In this document: in pieces, positions 535-22,090 of the stretch
Position numbering within the stretch: position 1 is the first letter of the stretch
Layout of the letters: the number at the start of each line of letters is the position of its first letter
From: an uncultured Clostridia bacterium
GTDB lineage: Bacteria; Bacillota; Clostridia; UBA1381
Direction: 5' to 3'
Length of the DNA: 24,000 nucleotides
NCBI GenBank assembly: GCA_944390495.1
Contig: CALXQE010000096.1
Location: 1 to 24,000, forward strand
Made by a program: the position numbers and the translations under genes
The notes under the pieces: model-generated
The model's database searches: none
What the model was told of the DNA's origin: nothing
The model's input: the letters and a program-made list of their open reading frames with translations, nothing else

Positions 535-1116
535 TTAAAAGCCTAAAACAGGCTGTAATTGTTTACCTTCTAATGCAGCTTTTGCCGCATCTGTTAACTT
601 ATCAAAGTCAGCTACCAATGAAGTTGGTTTTTTGACATAATCGTCCTGAGAAAATGGCAGGAAATATATGTTTTTACAATTTAATAGAGTACCTATATTT
701 TTCGCGGCAGTTCCCAGCCCGTCATTTGTAGATACTCCGATAAGTACAGGTTTTTGGTTACGTAGATGTGCTTTTACAGCCATTGTAACTGATGTATCAG
801 CTATTCCATTTGCTATTTTAGCAAGAGAATTTCCTGTACATGGTAAAATTATAAGCAGGTCAAGAAGATTTTTAGGACCGATTGGTTCGGCTTCCTTTAC
901 AGTGCTTATAATTTTATTGCCTGTAAGTGTTTTTAATTGTTCCTGAAAGTCTTTTGCTTTTCCAAAACGTGTATCAGTACTGTACGACATACTACTCATA
1001 ATAGGTATAACATTTGCACCGGTGTGCATAAGTTTTGTTAATGCGGCTATTGATTTTGAAAATGTGCAGAAACTTCCGCACATTGCATAGCCTATTGTTT
1101 TATTTTCCCAATCCAT
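535..1116 (-). CDS. dpaB: dipicolinate synthase subunit B (flavoprotein subunit)
   Basis: The 193-aa product aligns by eye along its full length with B. subtilis SpoVFB (motifs TGSxCT, TRFG, EPLGPK, TGNSxxKxAN, STNDxLG, FxPFxQDD, LQP). A GGGGGTG RBS lies inside the end of the dpaA 3' fragment. Confidence 0.9.
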   Translation of the reverse strand: MDWENKTIGYAMCGSFCTFSKSIAALTKLMHTGANVIPIMSSMSYSTDTRFGKAKDFQEQLKTLTGNKIISTVKEAEPIGPKNLLDLLIILPCTGNSLAKIANGIADTSVTMAVKAHLRNQKPVLIGVSTNDGLGTAAKNIGTLLNCKNIYFLPFSQDDYVKKPTSLVADFDKLTDAAKAALEGKQLQPVLGF

Positions 1117-1118
1117 AT

Positions 1119-1607
1119 TTACACCCCCAATTCATTTATAATGTTAATAATTGTATCCTTTATTATTGCACCAGATGTAACCGGAGCAATTTTTCCGGGA
1201 AGGGATAACGCCCAAATTACTCTTATGTTATATTCTTTTGCAGCATCAAAATCTACCCCCCCGGGCTTTGATGCAAGATCTATAATCAGTGCATCTTTTT
1301 TGACTTTTTTCAAAAGCTGATCATCTAAAATCAGTGACGGTATAGTGTTGAAGATTATATCAAATTCATGTATGTGACTATTAAGCTGTTCAATAGGTAA
1401 AGATACATAACCGTGACCTTCAATCATTGCAAGGTCTGCAAATTTTCGTGCTTCAACGTATGTCTGTGCACCCATTCCGTATAAATCCTTTGCAAGAATT
1501 TTTCCTATTTTACCATAACCTAAAACAAGACATTTGCTGCCGTGAATAGTAATAGGTGTTTCGGAAATGGCAATTTCTATCGCACCCTCCGCGGTAGGGA
1601 TTGCGTT
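1119..1607 (-). CDS. dpaA: dipicolinate synthase subunit A, 3' (C-terminal) fragment of a split gene
   Basis: The frame stays open upstream of the track ORF (1119-1475) up to 1613. It reads TANAIPTAEGAIEIAISETPITIHGSKCLVLGYGKIGKILAKDLYGMGAQ..., which matches the SpoVFA Rossmann segment (PTVEGTIM...IHGS...VLGLGRTG). It has no start codon or promoter of its own. Confidence 0.85.
   Translation of the reverse strand, partial: NAIPTAEGAIEIAISETPITIHGSKCLVLGYGKIGKILAKDLYGMGAQTYVEARKFADLAMIEGHGYVSLPIEQLNSHIHEFDIIFNTIPSLILDDQLLKKVKKDALIIDLASKPGGVDFDAAKEYNIRVIWALSLPGKIAPVTSGAIIKDTIINIINELGV
1591..1607. repeat. attL core: 17-bp imperfect direct repeat GCGGTAGGGATTGCGTT (partner at 21696-21712)
   Basis: 15 of 17 bases are identical to GCAGTAGGGACTGCGTT at 21696-21712 in the same orientation. 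Both copies encode NA(I/V)PTA of dpaA on the minus strand. Confidence 0.8.
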
Positions 1608-1953
1608 AGCGGTTTAGCTATAAATTAAAAAAGATCCCTAAGACGGAATCTTCTTGATAGGAGATGTTTATCTTTAATTTACCTAAATAATAAAATTTAT
1701 AGTCATTTATTCTTTTGAATATAGTGTCATAATTTTAGATGTTTTTTAAGTAGATATAATTTAGAGTTAAGAGAAAAATATTGTGATTTTTTTACATACA
1801 GAACACAGAACAAAAAATATCAAATATATTTAAAAACCCTTATAATATCGGGTTTATAGACAAAATATAGTATATAATAAAATCGGTGTTTAAGTGGAAA
1901 CTAAAACTTTATAAACGGACTTTTTTAGGTATCTAAAAGCTGCTGGTAAAAAA

Positions 1954-2330: not shown

Positions 2331-2585
2331 TTATGGTAAGTCGGATTTGTGTTCTTCGTAAAGTTGTTTAACAAAATCTAATAGTTTTTGTATGTTTGTA
2401 TTAGGCATTGGGCCTTGTAGACTATCTACAGTAGGTGGTGCTGATTTTAGATTTTTATCTTCCATGTATAAATCCAGAATTTTTATTAATTGTTTGTATA
2501 AATAAGTATAGTCACAGTCCATTTTTGATAATACAAGGGATATAATATCTATAGTTTTTGAAAAATAAATATATATTATTTTCAT
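2331..2585 (-). CDS. hypothetical protein (84 aa), divergent from the recombinase module
   Basis: An open frame this long is unlikely by chance in ~30% GC non-coding DNA. It has no convincing RBS and no recognisable motifs. Confidence 0.3.
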   Translation of the reverse strand: MKIIYIYFSKTIDIISLVLSKMDCDYTYLYKQLIKILDLYMEDKNLKSAPPTVDSLQGPMPNTNIQKLLDFVKQLYEEHKSDLP

Positions 2586-2608
2586 ATTAATATATGGGAG
2601 GTGTTGTT

Positions 2609-2734
2609 ATGCGACAATTAAGTCTTACGCAGAAACAAAAACTAAAGGAAAGTTATCGCCGTGGAATAGTACGGGAACTGTATGCAAAATCGCTTATAAG
2701 TGAATCGCAGTTCAGAAGACTTATGCAAAAGTAA
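2609..2734 (+). CDS. 41-aa basic protein immediately upstream of the recombinase; SHOCT-like C-terminal motif; candidate recombinase accessory or directionality factor
   Basis: The GGGAGG RBS at 2596-2601 lies 7 nt before the ATG. The product is MRQLSLTQKQKLKESYRRGIVRELYAKSLISESQFRRLMQK. The stop lies 33 nt before the recombinase start on the same strand. Confidence 0.5.
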   Translation: MRQLSLTQKQKLKESYRRGIVRELYAKSLISESQFRRLMQK

Positions 2735-2767
2735 AAATAAAAAAGATGTGGAGGGAGGTGTTTTGTG

Positions 2768-4360
2768 ATGCTCAAAGTTGCGGCCTATGCACGTGTATCA
2801 ACGGATAAAGACGATCAGATAAATTCACTGATAAATCAAAAAGAATATTTTGAAAACTACATAAAATCTCACGACGGTTGGTTATACAGCGGAGTGTTTT
2901 ATGACGAGGGTGTCACAGGCACCCAAACAAAAAAACGAATAGGTTTTAAAAGAATGATTGAAGAATGCAGGGCGGGGAATATTGACTTAGTACTTACAAA
3001 AGAAGTCAGCCGCTTTGCAAGAAATACAGTAGATACACTTAAATATACACGTAAGTTAAAGGAATACGGTGTTGGTGTACTGTTTATAAATGATAATATA
3101 GATACAAGGGAAAATGACGGGGAATTTCGACTTTCTATAATGGCATCGGTTGCTCAGGAGGAAAGCCGAAAAACATCAGAGCGTGTCAAATGGGGACAGC
3201 GGCGTTCGATGGAAAACGGTGTAGTATTTGGTAACAACAGTATTTTGGGGTTTAATATAAAAAACGGTGTAATCACCGTAAATGACGATGAAGCAGAAAT
3301 TGTGCGTCTTATATACCACAAGTACATAAATGAGGGAAAAGGAACTCATGTTATAGCAAGGGAATTGTATGAATCAGGTATAAAATCGCCTAAATCTTCA
3401 AAGGACCTTTGGAGCAGTACCATGATTTTAAAAATACTTAGAAATGAAAAATATGTAGGAGATCTTTTGCAGAAAAAATCAGTAACAACTGATTATCTTA
3501 CCCATAAGCGAATTATAAATGACAGCGACGATAAAATATTTATCGAAAATCATCACGAGGCTATAATTGACCGTGACACATGGAACAGAACACAGGAAGA
3601 ATTAAAACGGCGTAGCGTTGACGCTGATACAAAAAAGAAATACTCAAACAGATATTGGTGTTCGGGTAAAATTATTTGTAGCAGCTGTGGCGAAAGATTT
3701 GTTATACGTCGAAGCAGAAAAGTAAGCGGTGAGTATATTACTTGGGCGTGCCATTCAAGAGTATCACGTGGTAACAGAAAGATTGATGCAAACGGTAAAG
3801 AGGTCGGGTGTAATATGCGAATGATTAATAATAAGTCGCTGCTTGAATGTATGCGTTTTGTGACAGAGCAAATAAGTGTTGATTTTAATGATATAGTTGA
3901 TGAAGTGGTGTCGGAGATTAATGTGATGTCGCAATGTAATGATGATTCTATGTCAATCAATAGGCATATTCGCGATATAGAAGATAAGAAACTTAAAATG
4001 CTTGATAGCTATTTTGAGGGGATTATAAATTTCTATGAAATGGAAAAATTAAAGAGTAAGTATGATGGTCAGCTTGATAAATTAAATCAGCAGCTTGCAG
4101 AAGCGGAAAATAGACAAAACGCAATTAAAGAAAGACAACGTAGCTTGTCTGAGCTTAGGGATATTATTATCAATCAGACAATATATTCCCAGAGCGTATA
4201 TGCAGAAATACTTGATAAAATTACGGTGTATGATGATTATATGATTATAAAGCCTAAGTATATTGATTTTGTATTTAAAATCAGATATTCTACCCATGGA
4301 TATAAAGAAAACTATACTACGGTCATAGAGGAATGTACTATTGCTCCCGCAGATGAATAA
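2768..4360 (+). CDS. large serine recombinase (resolvase/invertase N-domain, recombinase domain, zinc ribbon and coiled coil)
   Basis: The N-terminus MLKVAAYARVSTDKDDQ carries the catalytic Ser motif, followed by SRFARN and Cys clusters CSGKIICSSCG...WACHS...GC. The C-terminus is a long Lys/Glu-rich coiled coil. GGAGG at 2754-2758 is the RBS. GTG 2765 is an alternative start. Confidence 0.93.
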   Translation: MLKVAAYARVSTDKDDQINSLINQKEYFENYIKSHDGWLYSGVFYDEGVTGTQTKKRIGFKRMIEECRAGNIDLVLTKEVSRFARNTVDTLKYTRKLKEYGVGVLFINDNIDTRENDGEFRLSIMASVAQEESRKTSERVKWGQRRSMENGVVFGNNSILGFNIKNGVITVNDDEAEIVRLIYHKYINEGKGTHVIARELYESGIKSPKSSKDLWSSTMILKILRNEKYVGDLLQKKSVTTDYLTHKRIINDSDDKIFIENHHEAIIDRDTWNRTQEELKRRSVDADTKKKYSNRYWCSGKIICSSCGERFVIRRSRKVSGEYITWACHSRVSRGNRKIDANGKEVGCNMRMINNKSLLECMRFVTEQISVDFNDIVDEVVSEINVMSQCNDDSMSINRHIRDIEDKKLKMLDSYFEGIINFYEMEKLKSKYDGQLDKLNQQLAEAENRQNAIKERQRSLSELRDIIINQTIYSQSVYAEILDKITVYDDYMIIKPKYIDFVFKIRYSTHGYKENYTTVIEECTIAPADE

Positions 4361-4391
4361 CGACAACAAAAAAGCTGTCGTTATTTTTTTA
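4359..4391 (+). terminator. rho-independent terminator after the recombinase gene
   Basis: The stem AACGACA / TGTCGTT is followed by a T-rich run (ATTTTTTTAT). Confidence 0.6.
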
Positions 4392-4401
4392 TCCACAATA
4401 G

Positions 4402-4710
4402 TCCGATACTTGCGAAAAACATTATGGTATACTTGACCTAAAGGCGAAATGACAGTATCAATTTCGGATGCTTCACGTGTGTTTTAGGCTAACTAAAGAA
4501 TATAAAATTACACCGTCAATGTCAATACGTGGTAATCTATATGACAATGCCTTAGCTGAAAATTTCTTTTCTATTCTTAAAACTGAGTGCATTCACAGGA
4601 TTCAACTGCACACCTATTAAGGGGAGATCCGCCTCATAGGTCAATACATAGATTTCTACAACAATTACCATATTCAAACTAAAACAAAATTGACACCATT
4701 TGAAAAATGA
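4402..4710 (+). pseudogene. IS3-family transposase (OrfB) 3' remnant, 5'-truncated with in-frame stops
   Basis: A single frame reads ...ILDLKAK*QYQFRMLHVCFRLTKEYKITPSMSIRGNLYDNALAENFFSILKTECIHRIQLHTY*GEIRLIGQYIDFYNNYHIQTKTKLTPFEK*. It contains the IS3 DDE C-terminal signature SMSxxGNxYDNAxxExFFxxLKxE and the YIxFYNN tail. In-frame stops lie at 4450-4452 and 4618-4620. Confidence 0.65.
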
Positions 4711-5234
4711 TGTTAGTTTATTGATTAAAATTTAATTATTCTAACATGGGTATACTTTTTTTGTGCTGTCCACACAATCTGGGCGGTTTAATAATATGTA
4801 TATGCTCTGATTTTTATAAACAATATGTCTTATCTTGCAACGTACAGTTCAAAATAAAGTCCAGAAAAACCATTTATCAAAGAGATATACTTTGCATAGA
4901 GTATGCGATATATTAAAAAATTGAATATAGCAAAAAATAGTATTTAGGTTAAAATGTACATTATCAGAAGTCATCTCAAGTTACACACGAACTTGTTTGT
5001 GTGATAAGAACAATAAGATTTTATGTTATCTGTATTAATATATTTTAAATCGTAATAATCTCTAAAGGATAATTATACAATCTATTGAAATATAATCGTT
5101 AAAAGATTACGGTATGATATGTAAAAAAATGGACATAATGGAATTGGAAGGGAAATAAAAGTTAATATTTTGTGTATTTTGTACAAAATAATATATAAAT
5201 TAATATATAAACTAATAAAAATGATATTTTCCTA

Positions 5235-5263
5235 TTGACAAACAACTGATTTTGTAGTAATCT
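5235..5263 (+). promoter_or_regulatory. putative sigma-A promoter of the beta-glucoside operon
   Basis: It reads TTGACA (5235-5240), 17 nt, TAATCT (5258-5263). The -10 is weak. It would place the transcript start just before the first RAT. Confidence 0.35.
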
Positions 5264-5276
5264 GATAACAGAAAAA

Positions 5277-5347
5277 GTTTGTTATTACGTGATGGTAAGC
5301 AAGACTGTTTATAATGCTGTTTTTGGGGTATTATAAGCAGTTTTTTT
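5277..5347 (+). promoter_or_regulatory. RAT (ribonucleic antiterminator) element overlapping a terminator, upstream of licT
   Basis: GTTTGTTATTACGTGATGGTAAGCAAGAC resembles the sacB/bgl RAT consensus (GGTTTGTTACTGATAAAGCAGGCAAGACCT). Its 3' end overlaps the stem CTGTTTATAAT / ATTATAAGCAG, which is followed by T7. Confidence 0.7.
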
Positions 5348-5372
5348 ATCTTTTACACGAGAGGTGAGAATT

Positions 5373-6224
5373 ATGGAAATTATCCGAGTTTTGAATACAA
5401 ATGCCGTTGTGACGGTTGATAAAAATCAACATGAGATAATTGTAACGGGTCCAGGACTTGGTTTTCGTAAGAAAAAGGGTGATTCTCTTGATGAGTCGTT
5501 AATAGATAAAACCTACAAACTGCAAAGTAATGAAGACAGTCGCAAACTTCAGGAGTTTGTTATGGCTGTTTCAGAACAATACCTCGATATTGCCAAACGT
5601 GTAGTTACAGAGGCTAGAGAAAAAGAAGGTCTGAAAATAAATGATGTACTCTATGTTACACTTACAGATCATATTAATTCAGCCATTGAAAGATATCAAT
5701 CAGGAATTGTGCTTAATAATGTGCTGAAATCAGATATTGAAAAATTTTATCCCAAAGAGTTTTCGATAGGAAAAAAGGCTATCCTATGGATTAAAGAAGA
5801 AACGGGGATTGACTTAGGTGATAATGAGGCAGCATTTATTGCTATGCACATAGTTGCATCTCAAACCAATGATAACAATACATCTAATGTACAAAAAATG
5901 ACAGAACTTATTAATGCTATTGTACAGATTGCAAGACTTCATTTTAAAGTTGATTTTCATGAAAATTCGTTTTCATATCAAAGATTTATTACACACTTGA
6001 AGTTTTTTGCAGGAAGAGTTTTTGATAATGCTACCTACAAAGACAGCATGTCTGAAATTTATAATATAATTATAAAACAAAATGCTTATGTCTATTCAGG
6101 AGTTCAGAAGGTTGCAGAATTTATAAAAAAAAGATATAACTATATTTTGAGTGTTGATGAGGCATTTTATCTTATGATTCATTTGAAACGTATCCTTGAT
6201 GAGGAACAACAGAATACACTATAA
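5373..6224 (+). CDS. licT: BglG/LicT/SacY-family PRD-containing transcription antiterminator
   Basis: The N-terminus MEIIRVLNTNAVV...GPGLGFRKKKGD is a CAT RNA-binding domain, followed by two PRD-like halves. GAGAGG lies 9 nt upstream of ATG 5373. The track start at 5364 is an upstream GTG. Confidence 0.9.
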   Translation: MEIIRVLNTNAVVTVDKNQHEIIVTGPGLGFRKKKGDSLDESLIDKTYKLQSNEDSRKLQEFVMAVSEQYLDIAKRVVTEAREKEGLKINDVLYVTLTDHINSAIERYQSGIVLNNVLKSDIEKFYPKEFSIGKKAILWIKEETGIDLGDNEAAFIAMHIVASQTNDNNTSNVQKMTELINAIVQIARLHFKVDFHENSFSYQRFITHLKFFAGRVFDNATYKDSMSEIYNIIIKQNAYVYSGVQKVAEFIKKRYNYILSVDEAFYLMIHLKRILDEEQQNTL

Positions 6225-6226
6225 TA

Positions 6227-6318
6227 GGTTTGTTATTATTAAGTTAAGCAAGACCTGATTGTAAATTTTACGCATAATACCCGGGAATGTGTATCATTTG
6301 CAGTCAGGTCTTTATTTA
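6227..6318 (+). promoter_or_regulatory. second RAT element overlapping a terminator, upstream of the PTS gene
   Basis: GGTTTGTTATTATTAAGTTAAGCAAGACCTGA is a very close RAT match. AAGACCTGA (6250-6258) pairs with TCAGGTCTT (6304-6312), followed by TATTTAT. Confidence 0.75.
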
Positions 6319-6346
6319 TAAAAATAAAAGAAAAGAGGTATTTATT

Positions 6347-8245
6347 ATGGATTACGAAAACATTGCAAAAAAAATATTGCACCGTGTCGGTGGCAAAGAT
6401 AATGTTGTAAGTGTTATTCACTGCATGACAAGACTGCGTTTTACATTAAAAGATCAGTCGATTGTAGATGATGAGGCGATAAAAAAGACAAAAGGTGTAA
6501 TGGGTGTTGTTAAAAAGGCAGGTCAATATCAAATCATAATTGGTAATGATGTAGCAAATGTTTACACTGAAATATGCAAACTTGGTAATTTTTCCGACAC
6601 TCCAAATAATAAAAAAGATGTGCCAAAAGAGAAAAAAAATATTCTAAGTATGCTTATGGATACCATTTCAGGTATAATGACACCTGTTATTCCGGCTATC
6701 ATAGGTGCTGCAATGATAAAAATATTGCTCACACTTTTGCCTATGCTCGGACTTATTGATACTGCCGGTGAAACATACAGTATCCTTAATGTTATAGGTG
6801 ATGGAGCGTTCTTCTTCTTGCCGGTGCTTATTGCGATTTCGGCTGCTAAAAAATTTGGTACAAATGTTTATTATGCGGTCAGTTTGGCACTTATTATGCT
6901 CCATCCAAATTTCATAGAAATGATGAATACGGTAAAGGAAACAGGAGAAGCAGTTCATTTTCTGAAATTCATACCAGTATCATATGCATCATATGCATAT
7001 TCGGTTATACCGATTATATTATCAGTTTGGGCGTTGAAATATGTTGAAAAACTTGTTGAAAAAATTACTCCGGTTGTAACGAAAAACTTCTTAAAACCAA
7101 TGCTTGTTATGCTTATTGCAGCACCGATTGCTTTAATAGTTTTAGGACCGCTTGGAGCAATATTCGGTGATGTTCTGTCAAAGGTGGTTTATTTTATACA
7201 CGATAAGCTTGGATTTATTGCTATCGGTATTATTGCAGGTATTTATCCGTTTGTGGTTATGGCAGGAATGCACCATGCATTTACACCTATTAAACTTGGA
7301 ATGTTAGCAACTACCGGATTTGAAAACTTTATATGTATAGGTGAGCTTTGCTCCAATATGGCACAAGGTGCTGCATCTGCAGCTGTTGCATTTAAGACAA
7401 AGAACAAGGATTTCAGACAGGTCGCAGGATCATCAGCATTCTCAGCACTTGTAGCAGGTATTACAGAACCAGCACTTTACGGTGTTACTTTAAGATTAAA
7501 GAAACCAATGCTTGGTGCTTGTATAGGAGCTGTTATAGGAGGTTTATTCGGAGGATTTTTCCAGTTAAAATGCTTTGGAATTGCAACACCAGCGATGGTG
7601 AGTATAGTTCAATATGTTGAAAGCGGTCGTCCTGCAAGTCTTTTGATTGCGGCACTTACAATACTAATAACTGCCGTTGCTGCTTTTATAGCAACTATGA
7701 TTATAGGTTTTGAAGACGTGGTTGATGAAGATGATGAATTGGACGTTGATGAAATAGCTTCAGCAGAAGAAAACAATTCAAAGTATGAAGGAGAAAGAAT
7801 GATAGTTGCTTCTCCTATTAAAGGAAAAACAATTTCACTTCTATCAGTAAACGATCCGACATTTTCAAATGAAATACTTGGCAAAGGTGCAGCTGTTGTA
7901 CCTGAGTCGGATGAGGTTTACGCTCCGTTTGACGGGACTGTTACAAATATGTTTGAAACAGGTCATGCTGTAGGATTGGAAAGTAATGATGGCATAGAAC
8001 TTTTAATACATGTAGGTCTTGACACGATTAATTTGAATGGACAATATTTTAATCCAGCAGTAAAAACAGGCGATGTAGTAAAGAAGGGTGATATGCTTTT
8101 GAAATTTGACAGGAATGAAATAAAGAAAGCAGGCTATGATATTACTACTCCTATAATAGTTACAAATTCCGATAATTTTAATAATGTTGAGTTAATAGAA
8201 GAAAAGAACTGTGATAAATTAGAACCACTAATTACTGTTAAGTGA
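6347..8245 (+). CDS. PTS beta-glucoside-family transporter, fused EIIB-EIIC-EIIA
   Basis: The EIIB Cys motif is VIHCMTRLRF. A multi-TM EIIC core follows. The C-terminal EIIA-Glc-type domain carries the TGHAVGL and LIHVGLDT histidines. The AAGAGG RBS precedes ATG 6347; the track start at 6287 lies inside the terminator. Confidence 0.9.
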   Translation: MDYENIAKKILHRVGGKDNVVSVIHCMTRLRFTLKDQSIVDDEAIKKTKGVMGVVKKAGQYQIIIGNDVANVYTEICKLGNFSDTPNNKKDVPKEKKNILSMLMDTISGIMTPVIPAIIGAAMIKILLTLLPMLGLIDTAGETYSILNVIGDGAFFFLPVLIAISAAKKFGTNVYYAVSLALIMLHPNFIEMMNTVKETGEAVHFLKFIPVSYASYAYSVIPIILSVWALKYVEKLVEKITPVVTKNFLKPMLVMLIAAPIALIVLGPLGAIFGDVLSKVVYFIHDKLGFIAIGIIAGIYPFVVMAGMHHAFTPIKLGMLATTGFENFICIGELCSNMAQGAASAAVAFKTKNKDFRQVAGSSAFSALVAGITEPALYGVTLRLKKPMLGACIGAVIGGLFGGFFQLKCFGIATPAMVSIVQYVESGRPASLLIAALTILITAVAAFIATMIIGFEDVVDEDDELDVDEIASAEENNSKYEGERMIVASPIKGKTISLLSVNDPTFSNEILGKGAAVVPESDEVYAPFDGTVTNMFETGHAVGLESNDGIELLIHVGLDTINLNGQYFNPAVKTGDVVKKGDMLLKFDRNEIKKAGYDITTPIIVTNSDNFNNVELIEEKNCDKLEPLITVK

Positions 8246-8259
8246 GAGAGGTGTTTAAT

Positions 8260-9711
8260 ATGGATAATACAACTAAGCGAGAATTTCCATCAGATTTTTT
8301 ATGGGGCAGTGCGTCAGCCGCATATCAGATTGAGGGTGGATATCTTGAGGACGGAAAAGGTATGTCGAACTGGGATGCGTTTGTACGCATCCCAGGTAAG
8401 ACATTTAAGTCAACAACGGGTGATATTGCAGTAGATCATTATCATCGCTATAAAGAGGATATTGCACTTATGGCTCAAATGGGGCTTAAGACGTATCGTT
8501 TTTCTGTGGCGTGGGCAAGAATTTATCCAAACGGAAACGGTGAGCTTAATAAAAAAGGTGTTGAATTTTACAATAATCTTATAGATGAGTGTTTAAAATA
8601 TAATATAGAACCTATGGTTACAATTTTTCACTGGGATTTGCCTCAATCATTGGTTGATGAGTACGGTGGTTGGGAAAACCGTAATATAGTTGATGACTAT
8701 GTGAATTATGCAAAGACTTTGTTCAAAGAGTTTGGTAATAAAGTAAAATATTGGATTACTTTAAATGAACAAAATATTTTTACATCACTTGGATGGCTTA
8801 CAGCACAGCACCCACCAGGAAAATTTGATGATAAAAAGATGTTCTATCAAGTTAATCATCACGCATTCATGGCACATGCAAAGGCTGTTATTGCCTATCG
8901 AGAGATGGGTGGATGCGGAAAAATAGGAGCAAGTTTTGCTTATACTCCTTCGTATGCTCTTGATTGCCGTCCATCAAACGCTATGTCAAAATATAACTAT
9001 GATGATTTAAAAAATTTCTGGTGGCTTGATGTCTATGGATATGGACGTTATCCGAAAGCAGCGATGACTTATTTAAAGCGAAAAGGTATTGCTCCTGAAA
9101 TCAAACAGGGTGATGAGAATATATTAAAAAAAGCTGCCATGGAAATTGATTTTATGGGTGTGAATTATTATCAAAGCTGTGTTTGTGAATATAATCCTAT
9201 GGATGGTGTAACACCTTATGGAACGATGAATACGACTGGTGTAAAAGGTTCATCACAGGTGGTTGGTATCCCAGGTATTTATAAAAATCCTGCTAACCCG
9301 TATTTGATGACTACCGACTGGGATTGGAGTATAGATCCGGTAGGTCTTAAATATTGCTGTCGTGAAATCACAAGCAGATACAATTTGCCTATAATAATAT
9401 CTGAAAACGGTCTTGGTGCTTTTGATAAAAAAGAAACAGATAATAGTATACATGATGATTATCGTATAAAATATCTCGAAGAACATGTAAAATCTTTAGG
9501 TGAAGCAATAAGTGAAGGCTGTGAAGTGTTAGCGTATTGTACATGGTCTTTTACTGATCTTTTAAGCTGGCTAAATGGTTATCAAAAGCGTTATGGATTT
9601 ATATATGTAGATCGTGATGAAAATGACAGTGCACCGATGACTCGATATAAAAAAGACAGTTACTTTTGGTATAAAAAGGTAATTGAAACAAACGGTAAAT
9701 GTATTGAATAA
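8260..9711 (+). CDS. glycoside hydrolase family 1, 6-phospho-beta-glucosidase
   Basis: GH1 signatures are present: FLWGSASAAYQIEGG, acid/base TLNEQN and nucleophile ISENG. The RBS GAGAGAGG precedes ATG 8260. Confidence 0.9.
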   Translation: MDNTTKREFPSDFLWGSASAAYQIEGGYLEDGKGMSNWDAFVRIPGKTFKSTTGDIAVDHYHRYKEDIALMAQMGLKTYRFSVAWARIYPNGNGELNKKGVEFYNNLIDECLKYNIEPMVTIFHWDLPQSLVDEYGGWENRNIVDDYVNYAKTLFKEFGNKVKYWITLNEQNIFTSLGWLTAQHPPGKFDDKKMFYQVNHHAFMAHAKAVIAYREMGGCGKIGASFAYTPSYALDCRPSNAMSKYNYDDLKNFWWLDVYGYGRYPKAAMTYLKRKGIAPEIKQGDENILKKAAMEIDFMGVNYYQSCVCEYNPMDGVTPYGTMNTTGVKGSSQVVGIPGIYKNPANPYLMTTDWDWSIDPVGLKYCCREITSRYNLPIIISENGLGAFDKKETDNSIHDDYRIKYLEEHVKSLGEAISEGCEVLAYCTWSFTDLLSWLNGYQKRYGFIYVDRDENDSAPMTRYKKDSYFWYKKVIETNGKCIE

Positions 9712-9727
9712 AGAGGAGTTGTGTAAA

Positions 9728-10672
9728 ATGCGGTACTATATAGGAATTGATTTGGGCGGTACAAATATTGCCGCAGGTATTGTTGATTCAAACGGTAAAA
9801 TCATGATAAAAGACAGTAAACCCACATTAAAAGAGCGCCCGACAGAAGAAATAATAGAGGATATGGTAAAGCTTGTTGAAAATTTAATAAAACGATGTGG
9901 TATAGCCAAGTACGATATTTCAGGAATTGGCATAGGATGTCCCGGCGCAGTTGATAATCGAAAAGGAATCATAACGTACTGCGTCAATGTACCAATGAAA
10001 AATGTGAAAATAGCCGAATATATCACAAGTCGTACAGGTATTCCTGTGAATCTTGAGAATGACGCTAATGCTGCTGCTTTAGGTGAATATAATGTAAAAG
10101 GCAGGGGTGCAAATAGTTATATTTTCATTACCCTCGGTACAGGCATAGGAGGCGGAGCGATTATTGCTGGGAAAATATACAGAGGATTCAACGGTGTAGG
10201 TATTGAGGCAGGGCACATGACACTTGTTCATAACGGTGATCGATGTACTTGCGGAAAGCGTGGCTGCTGGGAATGCTACGGATCTGTAACAGCTTTAATC
10301 AATCAAACAATAGAAAAAATGAATGCAAATCCTTCTTCGCTTATGAATATTAAAGCCAAAAAAATTGGAAAAGTTGATGGCAGAGTAGCATTTGAAGCTG
10401 CAAAAGAAGATGATAAGTCAGCCAAAGAAGTTGTACAGCAATATCTTGAATACGTTACTGACGGTATAACAAGTATCATAAATATATTTGAGCCTGAATT
10501 ACTTGTTATAGGAGGTGGAATAAGTAAGGAAGGTGATTATTTGCTTGAGCCTATTATAGAGTATGTGCACAAATACGAATATAACAAATATTGTCCAAAG
10601 ACAAAAATAGAAATTGCTTCACTTATGAATGATGCCGGAATAATAGGTGCAGCAATGTCGTGCGTAAAATAA
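9728..10672 (+). CDS. ROK-family sugar kinase (glucokinase-like)
   Basis: The N-terminus MRYYIGIDLGGTNIAAG is an ATP-binding motif, and the ROK zinc motif is GHMTL...CTCGKRGCWECYGS. AGAGGAG lies 9 nt upstream of ATG 9728. Confidence 0.8.
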   Translation: MRYYIGIDLGGTNIAAGIVDSNGKIMIKDSKPTLKERPTEEIIEDMVKLVENLIKRCGIAKYDISGIGIGCPGAVDNRKGIITYCVNVPMKNVKIAEYITSRTGIPVNLENDANAAALGEYNVKGRGANSYIFITLGTGIGGGAIIAGKIYRGFNGVGIEAGHMTLVHNGDRCTCGKRGCWECYGSVTALINQTIEKMNANPSSLMNIKAKKIGKVDGRVAFEAAKEDDKSAKEVVQQYLEYVTDGITSIINIFEPELLVIGGGISKEGDYLLEPIIEYVHKYEYNKYCPKTKIEIASLMNDAGIIGAAMSCVK

Positions 10673-10720
10673 ATCATGTTTTTGATAAATTGAAGGAGTT
10701 TTTGCTGGTACAACTGCGTG

Positions 10721-10776
10721 GGTGCGGACATATTCTTGGATTTTTTATGTAGCTAATTCAAGACTATGTCCGCACC
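10721..10776 (+). terminator. long hairpin (12-bp perfect GC-rich stem), probable terminator of the beta-glucoside operon
   Basis: GGTGCGGACATA (10721-10732) pairs with TATGTCCGCACC (10765-10776), with an inner 5-bp TCTTG/CAAGA helix. The downstream T-tract is only modest. Confidence 0.4.
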
Positions 10777-10907
10777 GCCGTTTTAAAATGTTGAACTATG
10801 ATAGTCATTCAGTGTACAATTTTCAGGTTTATCTTTTAAACGTTGCGTAAGTGGCGTATCTTTTATGTGGTGAACAAACTACAAATTAAATAATTGTTAT
10901 GATTTGC

Positions 10908-11237
10908 TTATAATTTTAGGTATTGTTGTGCATCAGAACCATTGTTTCCAAGATTTTTAACATTTTTTATAGTTCCATTTTTAACATTATCATATAACCA
11001 TCGACCAAGTAATGCTGGTGGAGTATCGATCAAATCTCTCAAAAAGAACGTTTCTCCCTTTGCAAGATTATTAATTTTATTTACCATGTCGATGTATAAA
11101 TCGCCATAAGAATTTTTTCCGTTGAATGCTCTTGCTTTACATAATGCAGCAATGTTAGGATATCCTTCAGCTCTTGCTTGGCAATCCAACATTGCTTTTT
11201 CGGAGTCGCTAATAGTAAATTGTACTCTAAAACTCAT
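10908..11237 (-). CDS. small hypothetical protein: ribbon-helix-helix-like N-terminus plus DUF1413-like C-terminus (tentative)
   Basis: GGAGG lies 5 nt upstream of ATG 11237. The product starts MSFRVQFTISDSEKAMLDCQARAEGY.... The C-terminus GETFFLRDLIDTPPALLGRWLYDNVKNGTIKNVKNLG recalls DUF1413 from memory only. Confidence 0.6.
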   Translation of the reverse strand: MSFRVQFTISDSEKAMLDCQARAEGYPNIAALCKARAFNGKNSYGDLYIDMVNKINNLAKGETFFLRDLIDTPPALLGRWLYDNVKNGTIKNVKNLGNNGSDAQQYLKL

Positions 11238-11254
11238 AAAAACCTCCATGTTAT

Positions 11255-11315
11255 AGACTTATGAACAGAAGTATGTTCATAAGTCTGTAATAATATATAT
11301 TTTACGGTTTGTCAA
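11255..11315 (-). promoter_or_regulatory. sigma-A-type promoter abutting a 13-bp perfect palindromic operator
   Basis: On the minus strand it reads TTGACA (11315-11310), 17 nt, TATTAC (11292-11287). This is followed directly by AGACTTATGAACA-N6-TGTTCATAAGTCT (11255-11286), which covers the predicted transcript start. Confidence 0.45.
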
Positions 11316-11387
11316 TAGTTTTTAAGTTGCATAATGAAATTATAGTTTCAAGCTGAATTTTAAACCTGCAAAAGTCGGATAAATGTA

Positions 11388-11416
11388 TTGTGTTTAGCCG
11401 ATTACAATGATATAAT
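11388..11416 (+). promoter_or_regulatory. putative extended -10 promoter of the MATE gene
   Basis: TGATATAAT has its TATAAT at 11411-11416. A weak TTGTGT -35 lies 17 nt upstream. Confidence 0.3.
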
Positions 11417-11467
11417 ATCCAAATGGATAAATTTGTTAGATTAATTTTTAAATAAGGGTGGGAATAC

Positions 11468-12823
11468 ATGGAAAAAATCAAAGACAACAGTAAATATTTT
11501 GGTACAGAAAAAATCAGTCGTATTTTGCTTAAAATGGCACCGCCTGTAATGTTTGCACAGCTTATACAAGCACTTTACAATATAATAGACAGCGTATTTG
11601 TGGGAAAGTATTCAGAAAATGGACTTACGGCATTATCAATTGTTTATCCACTTCAACTATTGATGATAGCACTTGCAGTTGGTACAGGTGTGGGGATAAA
11701 CACAGTAATGGCTTCAAAATTAGGTATAGGACAAGATAAAAAAGCAGATGAGTGTGCAGGTGTAGGAACACCGCTTGCTATTGTACTATGGTTTTTGTTT
11801 GCGGCGGTATGTTTTTTTATTATGCCTTTTTATGCAAAAATGCAAACATCTTCTCCTGATGTTATATCTGATGTAATATTATACGGACGAATTATAAGTG
11901 TGTTTAGTTTTGGGATTTTTCTTGAAAGTATTTGGACGAAAATTCTTCAAGCACGAGGTGATATGAAAGTACCTATGGTTGCACAAATTGCAGGAGCAGT
12001 TACTAATATTATTCTTGATCCTATACTTATTTTCGGTATGTTTGGCATCCCTGAAATGGGTATTTCAGGTGCAGCAGTTGCAACTGTTTTAGGGCAAGTG
12101 GTTGCGGCACTGATTGTGATGAAAAAAGGATATTACAAATCACCGGCTATAAAAAAATATTTTCGCTATATCAAACAAATATTTCGTTTGGGTATACCGA
12201 ATATTCTTATGCAATCGGCATATACTCTATACATTTTCGGACTGAATGTAATTCTTGCTGCGTTTTCCGATGCGGCCGTAACAGTGCTTGGGCTTTATTA
12301 CAAGTGGCAGTCTATTTTCTTTATTCCTTTAGGTGCAATGCAGACATGTATTGTGCCGGTTATTAGTTTTAACCATGCGGCAAGGAATTTTGAACGGTGT
12401 AAAAAGACTCTTAATACAGCCATTATTTTTGGTATGGCTTTGATGTTTGTAGGAACTCTTTGTTTTGAGTTTATTCCGGAACCTATGCTGCGTTTTTTCT
12501 CCTCTGAAGAAGATGTTATTTTAATAGGAATAACTGCTTTTAGAATAATCGGATTAAGTTTTATTCCACTTGTGACATCCCTTACATATCCTGTATTTTT
12601 TCAATCGGTTGGAGGAAGTTTTAAAAGTTCGTTTCTAACAATTATTCGTACAGTTTTTCTTTTTGTGCCGTTAGCATATATATTTTCACGTTTTGGACTT
12701 GGGTATTTCTGGCTTACATACCCTGTGACGGACAGTATTGTATCAATTATTGGGTTTGTTATGACTTATAAATTTTTCAATAATACATATATGGCAAAAG
12801 AGAGAAGCAGAGTGAATTACTGA
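11468..12823 (+). CDS. MATE-family efflux transporter
   Basis: The 451-aa product has about 12 predicted TM segments. The N-terminus ...ILLKMAPPVMFAQLIQALYNIIDSVFVGK is the typical MatE motif, and there is internal two-fold repeat character. Confidence 0.88.
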   Translation: MEKIKDNSKYFGTEKISRILLKMAPPVMFAQLIQALYNIIDSVFVGKYSENGLTALSIVYPLQLLMIALAVGTGVGINTVMASKLGIGQDKKADECAGVGTPLAIVLWFLFAAVCFFIMPFYAKMQTSSPDVISDVILYGRIISVFSFGIFLESIWTKILQARGDMKVPMVAQIAGAVTNIILDPILIFGMFGIPEMGISGAAVATVLGQVVAALIVMKKGYYKSPAIKKYFRYIKQIFRLGIPNILMQSAYTLYIFGLNVILAAFSDAAVTVLGLYYKWQSIFFIPLGAMQTCIVPVISFNHAARNFERCKKTLNTAIIFGMALMFVGTLCFEFIPEPMLRFFSSEEDVILIGITAFRIIGLSFIPLVTSLTYPVFFQSVGGSFKSSFLTIIRTVFLFVPLAYIFSRFGLGYFWLTYPVTDSIVSIIGFVMTYKFFNNTYMAKERSRVNY

Positions 12824-12854
12824 TAATTATTCACTTCATAAGGTAGTAAGATAA

Positions 12855-13649
12855 TCACTCAATAGGCACAGCCAATCTTGTTACATAGTTCTCTGTATTA
12901 ATATCCCTGCCGGTATATGGTGCAACAATAGCAATCGCACGTACATAACCTGTGGGTTTAATGCCAAGTTCACGGATTTTTTCGCCTAATTCATCATATA
13001 CTCTTTTTGCATTGCGGTAGGGACCGTAATACAGACACGAAAATGCATTACAGCTTGGATAAACCACTGCATCCTCTGGAGCATGATCTGGCTCTAAAGG
13101 TACACAGCAAATAAAATCACACTCAATGTTTTTAAATTCGTTATCAATAAAATCCGTACGTTTGTTTATAACAAATAAAGAACCTGACGGAAGCGGTTTG
13201 TACTCCTTTTCAACAACTTCATGAAAAAGATTATACATATTTATGTATCGATTATCTGTAGTAGTGCTGGAATATTCTCTTTGATAACAGATATATTCCG
13301 GTAAGGTTACAAATTCAAAGGTTATTTTTTCTTTGTTTTCAGTGCGAAGTTTCATTTCTTCATAAGTGTGTTTTGCGAGAAGATACCTATCTTCAATTAT
13401 TTTTAAAAGCTCCTCAGATTTTCCGTTAGAGTTGTAGTATAATAACGCATCATCATAGCTCATTCCCATATTTAAAAAATTCTTGATTTGCAAAATTCTG
13501 CTTATATTATGGTTATCGTAATAGCGGTAACCTGTTTTTTTATCTACAAAAGTAGGGGTAAGAAGCCCTTTTTCTTCCAGACGTAGAATGGTTGCCCTTG
13601 AAATACCGCAGCTCTTAACAGCTTGACTTATTGTGAATAAATTTCTCAT
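12855..13649 (-). CDS. MerR-family transcriptional regulator with C-terminal GyrI-like effector-binding domain (BmrR-like architecture)
   Basis: The N-terminal MerR wHTH is FTISQAVKSCGISRATILRLEEKGLLTP...GYRYY. A coiled-coil linker follows, then a ~150-aa C-terminal domain typical of GyrI-like ligand sensors. Confidence 0.88.
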   Translation of the reverse strand: MRNLFTISQAVKSCGISRATILRLEEKGLLTPTFVDKKTGYRYYDNHNISRILQIKNFLNMGMSYDDALLYYNSNGKSEELLKIIEDRYLLAKHTYEEMKLRTENKEKITFEFVTLPEYICYQREYSSTTTDNRYINMYNLFHEVVEKEYKPLPSGSLFVINKRTDFIDNEFKNIECDFICCVPLEPDHAPEDAVVYPSCNAFSCLYYGPYRNAKRVYDELGEKIRELGIKPTGYVRAIAIVAPYTGRDINTENYVTRLAVPIE

Positions 13650-13666
13650 AAAAACACCTCAAAATA

Positions 13667-13697
13667 TTGACTTGTCCACTGGTGGACATGATATAAT
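13667..13697 (+). promoter_or_regulatory. MerR-type promoter with a 19-bp spacer and dyad operator, facing the giant surface-protein gene
   Basis: It reads TTGACT (13667-13672), 19 nt, TATAAT (13692-13697). The spacer contains TGTCCAC-TG-GTGGACA (13673-13688), a 7-bp inverted repeat. Confidence 0.6.
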
Positions 13698-13763
13698 TAT
13701 TATAATTTATAAAATATTAGAAGTCAATAGATAGTGTAAAGTAAAAATAAGGAGAAATGCGTA

Positions 13764-16700
13764 ATGAAGAAAAGATTTATATCGCTTTTTACGATATTGT
13801 GTATGGCGGTATCGCTGATGCCGTCAATAATATTACCGGCTGCGGCAGAAACGAGCGTTTATGGTTACGGCACTAATGTATTACAGAATCCATCACCCAC
13901 ATCAAATGATTATTGGGAATTGGAAGATTGTTCTTATGGAAAATATTTGGGCTTGGGCAAAGATGAACCATATATATTCGGTGCAAAACAGGGAACGAAT
14001 ATTGCCGCAAGGCAGAAGATAACACTGATCGATGAAGATGTAATTCGTGCAAATAACGGAGAATTAACATTGTCGGCTTCAGGTAAATTTTATGCACAAG
14101 GCTCAAGAAGCCTTACGGCAAATTTGAATATTATTTGTTATAATTCATCTGGTGCTGTTTTAGCGACCTATAATGACCGTTATTCAGAGTATTCCTTTAG
14201 TGGCAGGACAAAGACTTTAAGTATAGGGGAGTCACAGATTCCTGCCGGTACCTCTTATATTGTGTATGAGGGTACGGAAGTCTTGGGTTCGGGCAATGCT
14301 TATTTCGGCATGTATGATTTCAGCATGATATTTTTCGACAAAACCACCCCAACGGTTAAAACTACACCATATCTTTATGCGGTAAATGATGATACAAATT
14401 TGCCGGCGTATGTTGTGCCTGAAAATAAGATTACATATGCTATTGATTTTAGCGAAGCGGTGACGGTCGGTGCATATCCTACAATAGATTTATCTATTGA
14501 ATCAGATGTAAGCTATGATATAACTTATTCAGAGGATAGGCAAACTGTATATTTTACAACGGCACTTCCTAATACGGGAACAAATACAAACGTTCAGCTT
14601 AAAAAAATATCAGGACTTTATGTTAAAGATGATGCGGGAAACGAATGCAGTTATACAGACGAATCACTTTCCGTCGGCAATCTTTCGTACAAATCTGTTT
14701 TTGATGTTACAAACAGCCTTACGAATTTAAGTTTTGCCGGAAACACGACTGTTAGGTACAAAACAGCATATTCTGCAACTCTTACACCGAATGACGGGTA
14801 TAAACTGCCTGATAGCATTACCGTAAAGGTAAACGGCAGTACCATAACCGATTATAATTATAATTCGTCAACGGGACAAATTTTGGTAAATTCCTCTGCA
14901 GTGACGGGTAATATTGAAATTACAGCGACAGCACCGGCACAAACATATACCATTACATTTGATATGCAGGGAGGTAGCGGCGGTACAGGAAGTATGGACA
15001 TAACGTACCTTAACCAATTATCATCTGTTACACCTCCGACACGTAACGGCTATACCTTTGGCGGATACTTTAGTGAAAAAAATGGCGGCGGAACACAGTA
15101 TTACCAGTATGATGGAAATTCAGGAAAAATATATGACAAAACTACCAATATAACGCTGTATGCGAAATGGACTCCGAAAGAGTATAGCGTTACACTTGAT
15201 GCACAGGGCGGAACGAATGGCGGAACGGTTACCGCAACTTATGATTCAGACATGCCTGCTATGACAAAACCAACTAAAAAAGGCTATACCTTTAATGGGT
15301 ATTATACACAGCCAAACGGAGCAGGCGAGAAATATTATAATGCTGACGGAACATCTGCGAGGAAATATGATAAAATAGACGGACTGGTACTTTATGCATC
15401 ATGGATTGCCAATGAGCATACTGTTACGCTGGATATGCAGGGCGGAAGCGGTAGGACGGCAAGCGTTACTGCAACCTATGACCAAGCTATGCCAAGCATT
15501 AAACCTCCTACCAGAGAGGGATATACCTTTGGTGGATATTTTGATAATACAAACGGAGAAGGAAATCAGTATTACTACCCAAACGGTACATCTGCAAAGA
15601 CCTTTGAGGTGGACAGCGACTTAATACTTTATGCCAAGTGGACACCTAATATATATGATGTAGTGATAGATGCCCAGGGCGGTTCGGGCAGCGGAACTGT
15701 TACAGCGACCTATGACAGTGAGATGCCTGTGATAGCTTTGCCGGACAAACCGGGTTATATATTCGGCGGATACTTTAGTGAAAAAAATGGCGGCGGAACA
15801 AAGTATTACAATGAGGATTGTACGTCTTCAATAACGTATAAACAAACGGAAGGTATCACTCTATACGCACTTTGGACGCCGATTACATACAATATTCAGC
15901 TTTACAGCATGGGAGAAAATGTAGGAACATTAACGGACGTTACATACGGTGAGTTAAGTCTACCGTCTGCGGAAAGTCTTGGAATTTCTTATGCAAATCA
16001 TAATTTTGTAGGTTGGAATATTTATGATGAACAGAATTGGGCGATGTATATTGCAGGTCAAACCTATTCGACAGGTCTTGTAACAGAGCAGGGAAAGACA
16101 GCGTATGTATATGCAGCGTGGCTTGAAAAAGATAAATATACCGTTACCTATGATGCAAACGGCGGAGGGGGTGCACCTGCGGCCGTAGAAGTACATGTTG
16201 ATGAAACAATCACACTTAGTTCTTCTGTTCCAAGTCGTGAAAACTATACATTTGTCGGTTGGTCTCAAAATTCCGGAGCAGATACGGCACAGTATCAGCC
16301 GGGTGATAGTTTCACAATGGGGAATTCCCTTGTAACTCTTTTTGCAGTGTGGAAGAAAAATCCCGAATTATCATATAACTCAAATGGCGGTGTTTTCAGT
16401 ACCTATGTAGGAGTGTCATATCCGACGGCAGGAAGCAGTGTAAATCTTACGAGTGCCACACCACAGAAAGAAGGATATATTTTCTGTGGTTGGGCAGAAA
16501 GGGAAAATGCAGCCATTGACGATATCATATCATCGCCATATACAATGCCTGATAGAGATACAGTGCTTTATGCTGTATATGAGCCGATTAAATATGAAGT
16601 TCGGGTGAGTGAAGCAGCGGGCTATTCGGTTAACGGTATATCTGCTGACGGATATACAATCGGAGAGTATGCGGAATTTACTGTAAGCGGTGCAAATCCA

Positions 16701-21640: not shown

Positions 21641-21682
21641 TGTGTAAATGAATATGATAAACTGTATTTACTAAATTCATAG

Positions 21683-22090
21683 CTATATTACAAACGCAGT
21701 AGGGACTGCGTTTTTAATTGAAAGTTCTTCTCGTTTTAAATAGTCACGGCAGGCAATGTGGTTATCTTCAAGTTCTTTTTTTAAGTTTGGTTGTATTTGA
21801 CCGCCAAACACCAGTGCTGATGGGTTTATATTTCTTATAAGTTCATCTATTGTTAATGGTTCTTTTGCGTATGGTGAATTAATAGTTACTCCGTCAAAGG
21901 TTACAGGTACAGGCAGAATTATTATATCTGCACCGAGAACAAAATCCTTATCTGTTTCAGCCAATCCTTCGTCTACTGCTATATCTTTGTCGAAACCGTA
22001 CATAAAGACATGATACCCTTCTTCTTTCATAAGGCGTGCAAGGGTAAGCTGCCTTAAATCTCCGCCTATAACGGAAACTGTTTCAAACAT
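21683..22090 (-). CDS. dpaA: dipicolinate synthase subunit A, 5' (N-terminal) fragment of a split gene (132 genuine codons plus 3 element-encoded codons and a stop)
   Basis: MFETVSVIGGDLRQLTLARLMKEEGYHVFMYGFD... aligns with the SpoVFA N-terminus (KIAVIGGDARQLEIIRKL...LVGFD). A GGAGG RBS is present. Homology stops at PTA. Confidence 0.88.
   Translation of the reverse strand: MFETVSVIGGDLRQLTLARLMKEEGYHVFMYGFDKDIAVDEGLAETDKDFVLGADIIILPVPVTFDGVTINSPYAKEPLTIDELIRNINPSALVFGGQIQPNLKKELEDNHIACRDYLKREELSIKNAVPTAFVI
21696..21712. repeat. attR core: GCAGTAGGGACTGCGTT (partner at 1591-1607)
   Basis: See the attL entry. It lies at the exact point where the dpaA 5' fragment departs from SpoVFA homology (…NAVPTA then FVI-stop). 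Confidence 0.8.

Follow-up and report, generated by a model that had tools for sequence, protein, structure and literature searches.

The window analyzed here comprises positions 1 to 24,000 (forward strand) of contig CALXQE010000096.1 from an uncultured Clostridia bacterium (assembly GCA_944390495.1), in which the sporulation gene dpaA (spoVFA) is split by an inserted element of 20,105 bp that encodes its own large serine recombinase. The element extends from 1598 to 21702, bounds that are ambiguous by the 2-bp crossover described below. The 5' part of dpaA lies at 21703 to 22090 on the minus strand (Pfam DpaA_N, E 3.6e-29), where the open reading frame (ORF) of the split fragment runs from 21683 to 22090, and the 3' part, which joins to it, lies at 1119 to 1597 on the same strand. 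Downstream of dpaA is dpaB (spoVFB; 535 to 1116, minus strand), which scored 281 bits against a cut-off of 156 with the NCBIfam model for dipicolinate synthase subunit B. In model organisms, dpaAB is a mother-cell operon dependent on sigma-K.

When 22090 to 21703 was joined to 1597 to 1119, we obtained an intact DpaA of 288 amino acids (aa) with no stop codon or frameshift, and the joined protein scored 324.7 bits with the NCBIfam DpsA model for dipicolinate synthase subunit A (cut-off, 261). The break is at codon 130 (Pro130, CCT), inside the codons N-A-V-P-T-A-E-G, and removal of the element restores the gene with neither gain nor loss of a base. The reconstructed dpaA is collinear, without an indel, with the uninterrupted dpaA of three relatives (L091 to L093), from which it differs at wobble positions only; the closest relatives with an intact dpaA show 82 to 85% protein identity. 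Three other samples contain this split allele, as sister copies at the same site designated L090 (96% identical), L094, and L095. At the left junction, L090 has the same sequence as the window, and so do L094 and L095 at the right junction. Samples that carry the element include ERZ26858765, ERZ24773278, and ERR4096322. In the dpaA 3' half, the window and L090 differ at eight synonymous sites and one non-synonymous site, a small sample. With the joined DpaA as the query, no intact DpaA more than 85% identical was found in a database of 5.8 billion proteins, which leaves the comparison with no empty-site control from the same species.

The recombinase is a full-length protein of 531 aa (2765 to 4360, plus strand), as indicated by Pfam, PHROGs, an AlphaFold2 model, and fold matches. 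Pfam detected the Resolvase (E 1.4e-34) and Recombinase (E 9e-25) domains, with Zn_ribbon_recom at 23 bits, below its cut-off of 25.3, and the protein matched the integrase family PHROG 95 with an E value of 1.6e-122. The catalytic-domain motif AAYARVSTD occupies residues 6 to 14. In the AlphaFold2 model (35 homologues; mean predicted local distance difference test score, 77), catalytic, recombinase, and beta-rich zinc-ribbon domains are followed by a long two-helix hairpin (residues 394 to 473) and a C-terminal beta domain. The best Foldseek matches were full-length complexes of serine integrases with their attachment (att) sites, of the SPbeta type, Bxb1, phiC31, and LI, with E values from 1e-18 to 1e-13. 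The architecture is that of a full serine integrase, although its identity is only 15 to 17% with the solved integrases and does not exceed 46% with any phage record. The NCBIfam XisF model gave 99 bits against a cut-off of 375 and was thus below threshold. The recombinase is presumably catalytically active on the sites predicted below.

We reconstructed the attachment site of the element (attP) by joining the element-side sequences of the two junctions, i.e., 21679 to 21702 (ATAGCTATATTACAAACGCAGTAG) and 1598 to 1621 (GGATTGCGTTAGCGGTTTAGCTAT). The two halves of this 48-bp composite are reverse-complementary at 16 of 24 positions, with outer boxes (ATAGCTA) and inner boxes (AACGCA/TGCGTT) that are all perfect and placed at identical spacing. 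The original prediction, which had been made from the letters of this DNA alone, described the same attP-like site, and its sequences, coordinates, symmetry, boxes, and spacing were all reproduced exactly. Read outward from the center, one element half-site (1598 to 1627, plus strand) is GGATTGCGTTAGCGGTTTAGCTATAAATTA, with TGCGTT at positions 5 to 10, TAGCTAT at 18 to 24, and AATT at 26 to 29; the other (21673 to 21702), read outward on the minus strand, is CTACTGCGTTTGTAATATAGCTATGAATTT. The symmetry extends outward through AATT, so that the two arms match at 20 of 30 positions.

When 17 neighboring centers were scored on the joined sequence, the center at 1597|1598 gave 16/24 and every other center gave 11 or less, which bears out the proposal that the symmetry is centered on GG (1597-1598 and 21702-21703). 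Across the whole window, a symmetry of at least 16/24 occurred at 10 of 23,952 centers and one of 20/30 at 2 of 23,940. Besides, the pattern ATAGCTA-N7-AACGCA, with at most one mismatch allowed, has exactly two matches in the 24 kb, at 1602 to 1621 (minus strand) and 21679 to 21698 (plus strand), that is, inverted and at both ends of the element. The expectation by chance for this two-box pattern is 0.03, and none of 100 shuffled sequences gave two matches. The symmetry of the composite is well beyond chance.

Each junction is a hybrid of one element half-site and one host half-site (left, 1574 to 1621; right, 21679 to 21726). The host half-site on the C-terminal side of dpaA (1574 to 1597) covers the codons T-A-E-G-A-I-E-I, and that on the N-terminal side (21703 to 21726) covers the codons ...L-S-I-K-N-A-V-P, with its inner 10 nucleotides (nt), GGACTGCGTT, resembling the element arms. 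The reconstructed host site (attB) is symmetric at 6 of 24 positions, which is the chance level, and, as had been proposed, it shares the inner CGC-GT motif alone. The weak symmetry of attB here simply reflects coding sequence. The two junction cores form an 18-bp repeat, CGC[G/A]GTAGGGA[T/C]TGCGTT, in which 1593 (G) differs from 21698 (A) and 1601 (T) differs from 21706 (C), with an identical GTAGGGA between. Two mismatches flanking GTAGGGA had been noted before; counted from the first C, they stand at positions 4 and 12, and not at positions 3 and 11 as then given. The predicted joints are ...CCCTCCGCGGTAGGGACTGCGTTTTTAATTG... in attB and ...ACAAACGCAGTAGGGATTGCGTTAGCGG... in attP. We also observed that the right junction contains a near-perfect palindrome at 21687 to 21718, a 13/14 inverted repeat (ATTACAAACGCAGT / ACTGCGTTTTTAAT), because the host codons N-A-V-P resemble the inner box of the element arms; 15 other loci of the family described below show this inner palindrome at the corresponding junction.

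We mapped the crossover by comparing nine relatives for which both junctions are available with the window, giving ten loci that were all oriented on the dpaA reading frame. The run of sequence shared by the two junctions was TCCCTAC (7 nt) in the window, GTCCCTACGGCA (12 nt) in L004, CCTAC (5 nt) in L005, CAACGCCGTACCTAC (15 nt) in L009, AATGCTGTACC (11 nt) in L017, TCCCTACTGCA (11 nt) in L025, AACGCAGTACCT (12 nt) in L029, and ACCT (4 nt) in L032, and it was reduced to CC (2 nt) in both L016 and L019. These ten runs, ranging from 2 to 15 nt, intersect only in CC, the first two bases of the Pro130 codon. In the window, this dinucleotide corresponds to GG at 1597-1598, i.e., bases 2 and 1 of the Pro130 CCT on the minus strand and also the center of symmetry, and to GG at 21702-21703. 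The GG crossover had originally been proposed from symmetry, and the ten-locus intersection arrives at the same dinucleotide independently of it. The predicted exchange is thus at GG/CC, an assignment with a comparative rather than a biochemical basis. The exchange point cannot drift in a functional dpaA because a proline codon always begins with CC, and the polarity of insertion is fixed because GG is not self-complementary. In all members of the family, the arms stand in the same register relative to the proline codon. Nine of the ten loci have a reconstructed attP with 14 to 21 symmetric positions out of 24, compared with 6 to 11 of 24 for attB in the same nine.

The element-side arms are non-coding yet conserved family-wide to about position 24 to 29, beyond which the information content is at noise level. 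Their consensus, outward from the center, is (G/C)TA..GCGTTAGCGGTAT.GCTA. A position weight matrix was built from 32 arms taken only from other genomes and was used to score 47,896 combinations of position and strand in the window (background mean, -25; standard deviation, 9.5). The two window arms came out on top, with 24.8 bits for the arm running leftward from 21702 (rank 1) and 22.0 bits for that running rightward from 1598 (rank 2). Even with positions 11 to 26 alone, which the host arms do not share, the 1598 arm ranked first and the 21702 arm third. The matrix places the half-sites at exactly the starts that had been predicted for them. In the structure of the LI integrase bound to attP, the half-site is 25 bp long and the zinc-ribbon motif is at positions 16 to 24 (PMC3783163); the inner box (about positions 5 to 11) and the outer box (18 to 24) of our arms coincide with the contacts of the recombinase domain and the zinc ribbon, respectively, in the solved integrase-attP structures. 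As a side observation, the 5' fragment of dpaA meets a stop codon 6 to 9 codons into the element (21683 to 21702 in the window; also in L001, L004, L016, L017, and L019), which in most loci falls within the conserved outer box (..GGTATAG..), so that the arm sequence also ends the fragment quickly.

The family was delineated by a scan of one genome per species, which yielded 41 loci with related recombinases (38 to 72% identity). At least 25 of these 41 loci adjoin dpaA fragments broken at residues 127 to 132, at the same codons. The hosts are Clostridia (Oscillospiraceae, Butyricicoccus, and Hominilimicola-like genomes), and the smallest members, 3.1 to 4.7 kb in size, are essentially a recombinase unit. 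Two of the carriers are isolates, Clostridiaceae bacterium strain 9 (L017) and Butyricicoccus sp. Marseille-Q5471 (L018). In the clade that includes the window (L001 to L005, L011, L027, L029, and L032), the recombinase gene is antisense to dpaA, and an operon in this orientation needs its own promoter. In another clade (e.g., L009, L016, L019, L020, and L031), the recombinase gene is co-directional with dpaA and lies 220 to 550 nt downstream of its 5' part, so that the dpaA promoter could drive the recombinase operon by read-through. The existence of both arrangements implies that, during evolution, the recombinase gene was turned around with respect to the central CC.

No free attP was found in the fetched loci of the family, including those without dpaA, or in three viral contigs with 45%-identical recombinases; the recombinases from these viral contigs and from the loci without dpaA probably use other targets. 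A scan of metagenome and viral collections for attP, attB, attL, and attR (the latter two being the hybrid junction sites) with CGCRGTAGGGAYTGCGTT returned 48 matches, all of which had unrelated flanks and were rejected as chance matches. In the searchable literature, including reviews and lists up to 2023-2025 and with many subscription papers lying outside it, we found no description of an element that splits dpaA/spoVFA. The family is widespread and, as it seems, undescribed, and its proteins may already be included in large computational catalogues of serine recombinases.

Directly upstream of the recombinase gene is an ORF of 41 aa (2609 to 2734, plus strand; MRQLSLTQKQKLKESYRRGIVRELYAKSLISESQFRRLMQK) that has its own ribosome-binding site and ends 30 nt before the recombinase gene. 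Homologues occupy the same position in 32 loci of the family, with the conserved pattern L-T..Q...L...Y-R-R-G-I..E-L-Y....I-T.E-Q-Y-R-R-L. No significant match was found in Pfam, PHROGs, NCBIfam, or PDB, the best sub-threshold one being to SHOCT (E 0.015). Owing to its fixed position upstream of the recombinase, the 41-aa protein is the obvious candidate, speculatively, for a directionality factor or a regulator.

We also looked upstream of this ORF, where an element resembling [C/A]ATA-N3-ATA is located 10 to 25 nt before the ribosome-binding site in the window (2575 to 2600) and in L003 to L009, L016, and L020 (for example, GCATATACATAAA in L008, L009, and L031). It recalls the -10 box recognized by mother-cell sigma factors of Clostridioides difficile (CATATAAT) and is not a clean match to it. 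Given the imperfect fit of the -10 box and a -35 region that is not conserved, we retain a promoter of the sigma-E/sigma-K type as a hint only.

The site design is of the standard serine-integrase type. As with the integrases of Listeria phage A118/LI (PDB 4KIS; PMC3783163), SPbeta, Bxb1, and phiC31, there is a pseudo-palindromic attP of about 50 bp made of half-sites of about 25 bp with inner and outer boxes, a central dinucleotide that is not palindromic and determines the polarity, a hybrid site (attL or attR) at either end of the element, and a recombinase with catalytic, recombinase, zinc-ribbon, and coiled-coil parts. The present system differs from these in its site sequences, which bear no relation to theirs, in being carried by an element other than a phage, and in a protein identity of 15 to 17%.

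The biological setting, in turn, has its closest parallels among the elements known to interrupt genes of spore formers, i.e., skin in sigK, vfbin in spoVFB, vrin in spoVR, SPbeta in spsM, gin in gerE, and yin in yabG. As with skin and with vfbin of Bacillus weihenstephanensis KBAB4, which splits spoVFB/dpaB, a recombinase element splits a mother-cell sporulation gene that precise excision would rebuild, and, as with vfbin, the target enzyme is dipicolinate synthase. The recombinase of skin is SpoIVCA, or CD1231 acting with the directionality factor CD1234. The present family differs from both in that the target is subunit A (dpaA/spoVFA) at NA[V/I]PTAEG, the hosts are Clostridia, and excision during sporulation is predicted. 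Like gin in gerE of Bacillus cereus ATCC 10987 (PMC5595907), the element is an intervening element without phage genes; unlike gin, it is 20 kb long and carries an operon for sugar utilization together with an efflux pump and a surface protein of 2,608 aa, and its family has the 41-aa ORF. A further parallel is found in Anabaena heterocysts, where XisF, a large serine recombinase, removes the fdxN element from a gene needed only in a terminally differentiated cell. The present recombinase falls outside the XisF equivalogs, and the two systems differ in phylum, target, and accessory factors.

Based on these results, we consider it highly probable that the 48-bp composite is a genuine attP, recovered from attL plus attR and with a GG crossover. 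With the same assurance, we propose that it is the site of a mobile element that integrated into dpaA by means of its own large serine recombinase. This proposed interpretation is supported by comparative evidence considerably stronger than that on which the original prediction was built. The recombinase would cut the strands with a 2-bp stagger at GG/CC, where CC opens the codon of the invariant proline in N-A-[V/I]-P-T-A-E-G. An exchange between the left and right junctions would then free a 20.1-kb circle that carries attP and leave dpaA whole again. Excision would most likely take place in the sporulating mother cell, like that of skin from sigK or vfbin from spoVFB, and may be aided by the conserved 41-aa protein encoded upstream of the recombinase.

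We infer the timing by analogy, since the described elements that split mother-cell genes all excise during sporulation and stay in the spore genome (PMC6957869). It would also be favored by the ratio of eight synonymous to one non-synonymous differences in the dpaA 3' half, by the presence of the split allele in three other samples together with the lack of a closer intact DpaA, and by the co-directional operon behind the dpaA 5' part in one clade. Indeed, the two dpaA halves are intact and the changes in the 3' half, in a small sample, are mostly synonymous, as in a functional gene under purifying selection.

The remainder of the element, from 5364 to 21590, is cargo. It encodes a LicT-type antiterminator, a beta-glucoside phosphotransferase system, a GH1 phospho-beta-glucosidase, a ROK kinase, a DUF1413 protein, a MATE pump, a MerR regulator, and a surface protein with repeats and SLH domains. 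The last of these is a secreted protein of 2,608 aa (13764 to 21590, plus strand) that makes up 39% of the element; its sequence includes 16 Listeria-Bacteroides repeat units and, at the C terminus, three SLH domains. Among the ORFs of the element, no phage or conjugation genes were found; the only PHROGs matches were the integrase and, weakly, the MerR protein, and the other ORFs are metabolic, transport, or surface genes. Prophage-like gene content, which is found in most elements that intervene in sporulation genes, is thus missing here. The ROK kinase (9683 to 10672) is a single intact ORF of 329 aa in the window, and in L090 it was called as two pieces of 183 and 117 aa (14426 to 15370 of that locus).

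Just inside the element, a terminator-like hairpin with a T-run (1628 to 1655, minus strand) points toward the 3' part of dpaA and dpaB and may shield the host genes from transcripts that run out of the element; the region is also present in L090, with stem bases changed. We further observed that a segment of about 850 bp (1732 to 2572) is missing from L090. It holds an ORF of 84 aa (2331 to 2585, minus strand) without a family match, is bounded by a repeat of about 13 nt, and ends just upstream of the 41-aa ORF, so that the region upstream of the recombinase operon differs between the window and this sister copy. The host flank contains a fragment of an SLH-type gene (15 to 362). No RNA family was found in the window with Rfam, and base composition does not separate the element from its flanks.

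Several observations weigh against the proposal of an attP site on an element that excises during sporulation. Neither an excised circle (free attP) nor an empty attB of the species was found in the assemblies searched, and the joined site is for this reason a reconstruction. Upstream of the recombinase operon, the signs of a promoter specific to sporulation are weak. With its metabolic and surface cargo and its lack of phage genes, the element could behave as an ordinary island. In L029, the reconstructed attP is symmetric at only 8 of 24 positions and attB at 15 of 24, with a degraded arm; this small member (element at about 3934 to 7372) is possibly a decaying or immobilized copy. Finally, the outer (zinc-ribbon) motif of a serine-integrase attB is expected to stand about 5 bp closer to the center than in attP, and such a displacement can be seen only weakly and in one host arm alone: the arm by the dpaA 3' part has a local peak at a shift of 5 and a higher one at -7, the other arm peaks at 2, and the core shared in this comparison is only GC-N-A.

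Some of these points would fit an alternative in which the sites are real serine-recombinase sites on an ordinary integrative island, there is no excision timed to sporulation, and dpaA is inactivated or dipicolinate is made otherwise. The beta-glucoside operon, the efflux pump, and the giant surface protein, without any phage genes, are a plausible load for such an island, searches of the assemblies gave no excised form, the signs of a sporulation promoter are weak, and some clostridia make dipicolinate without DpaAB (bioRxiv 10.1101/2022.02.25.481979). We nevertheless regard this alternative as unlikely, while serious. Neither half of dpaA has a frameshift or a stop codon, and the 3' half differs from L090 at eight synonymous sites and one non-synonymous site; the downstream dpaB is intact; at least 25 species-level genomes have elements at this one target; one clade has its operon 220 to 550 nt behind the dpaA 5' part in the co-directional orientation suited to read-through; and the described elements that split mother-cell genes all excise during sporulation (PMC6957869).

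It would be more pessimistic to suppose that the attachment sites are relics of a fixed, immobile element and that their symmetry is inherited without current function. The lack of any empty site or circle among the sequences searched, the decayed arm of L029, and the 850-bp indel relative to L090 between the left junction and the recombinase operon could all be read in this way. This is improbable in view of the intact recombinase (531 aa) and 41-aa ORF, which are 94 to 100% conserved in the sister copy, of the two arms that stand at the top of the family motif, and of the junctions that are identical, the left in L090 and the right in L094 and L095.

As to the position of the exchange, the window alone formally permits any of six dinucleotides in the 7-nt identity, and the crossover could lie at another one in GTAGGGA (e.g., TA or GA), with the symmetry center coincidental. 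The other loci make this very improbable, since L016 and L019 share CC alone, L005 shares CCTAC, and L032 shares ACCT, the ten-locus intersection is exactly CC, and the symmetry center and the register of the family motif agree with it independently. The ends of the element and the flanking direct repeat look superficially like terminal inverted repeats of a DDE-type transposon with an 18-bp target-site duplication, a reading that, like mere chance symmetry (box-pattern expectation, 0.03), we dismiss as scarcely credible, because the element has no transposase besides the serine recombinase, the direct repeat, rather than being a perfect duplication of fixed length, contains mismatches and amounts to only 2 bp in L016 and L019, and insertion occurred at one codon in at least 25 genomes.

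We thus return to the proposal of a dpaA-splitting element that was inserted, and would be excised, by its own serine recombinase. By this proposal, dpaA (spoVFA) is a further sporulation gene split by recombinase elements, in at least 25 species-level genomes and at one invariant peptide motif. The comparative data narrow the crossover to two bases without experiment and thereby give precise synthetic substrates, and in the conserved 41-aa ORF there is a concrete directionality-factor candidate. Besides, diverged recombinases and attP arms that go with essentially one attB amount to a natural experiment on how sites are recognized, and they offer candidate orthogonal integrases.

Going further, and only tentatively, since we hold it to be possible and rather doubtful, the dpaA-splitting elements may constitute a widespread developmental switch in gut and environmental Clostridia. 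In such a switch, the recombinase and the co-transcribed 41-aa protein, as a new small directionality factor, would form the excision module, dipicolinate synthase would be rebuilt in the mother cell only, and the element would be a germ-line-only carrier of vegetative cargo such as the beta-glucoside operon and the giant surface protein. If this is true, the dozens of recombinase and attP variants acting on one attB core would provide a ready set for studying how integrases read their sites.

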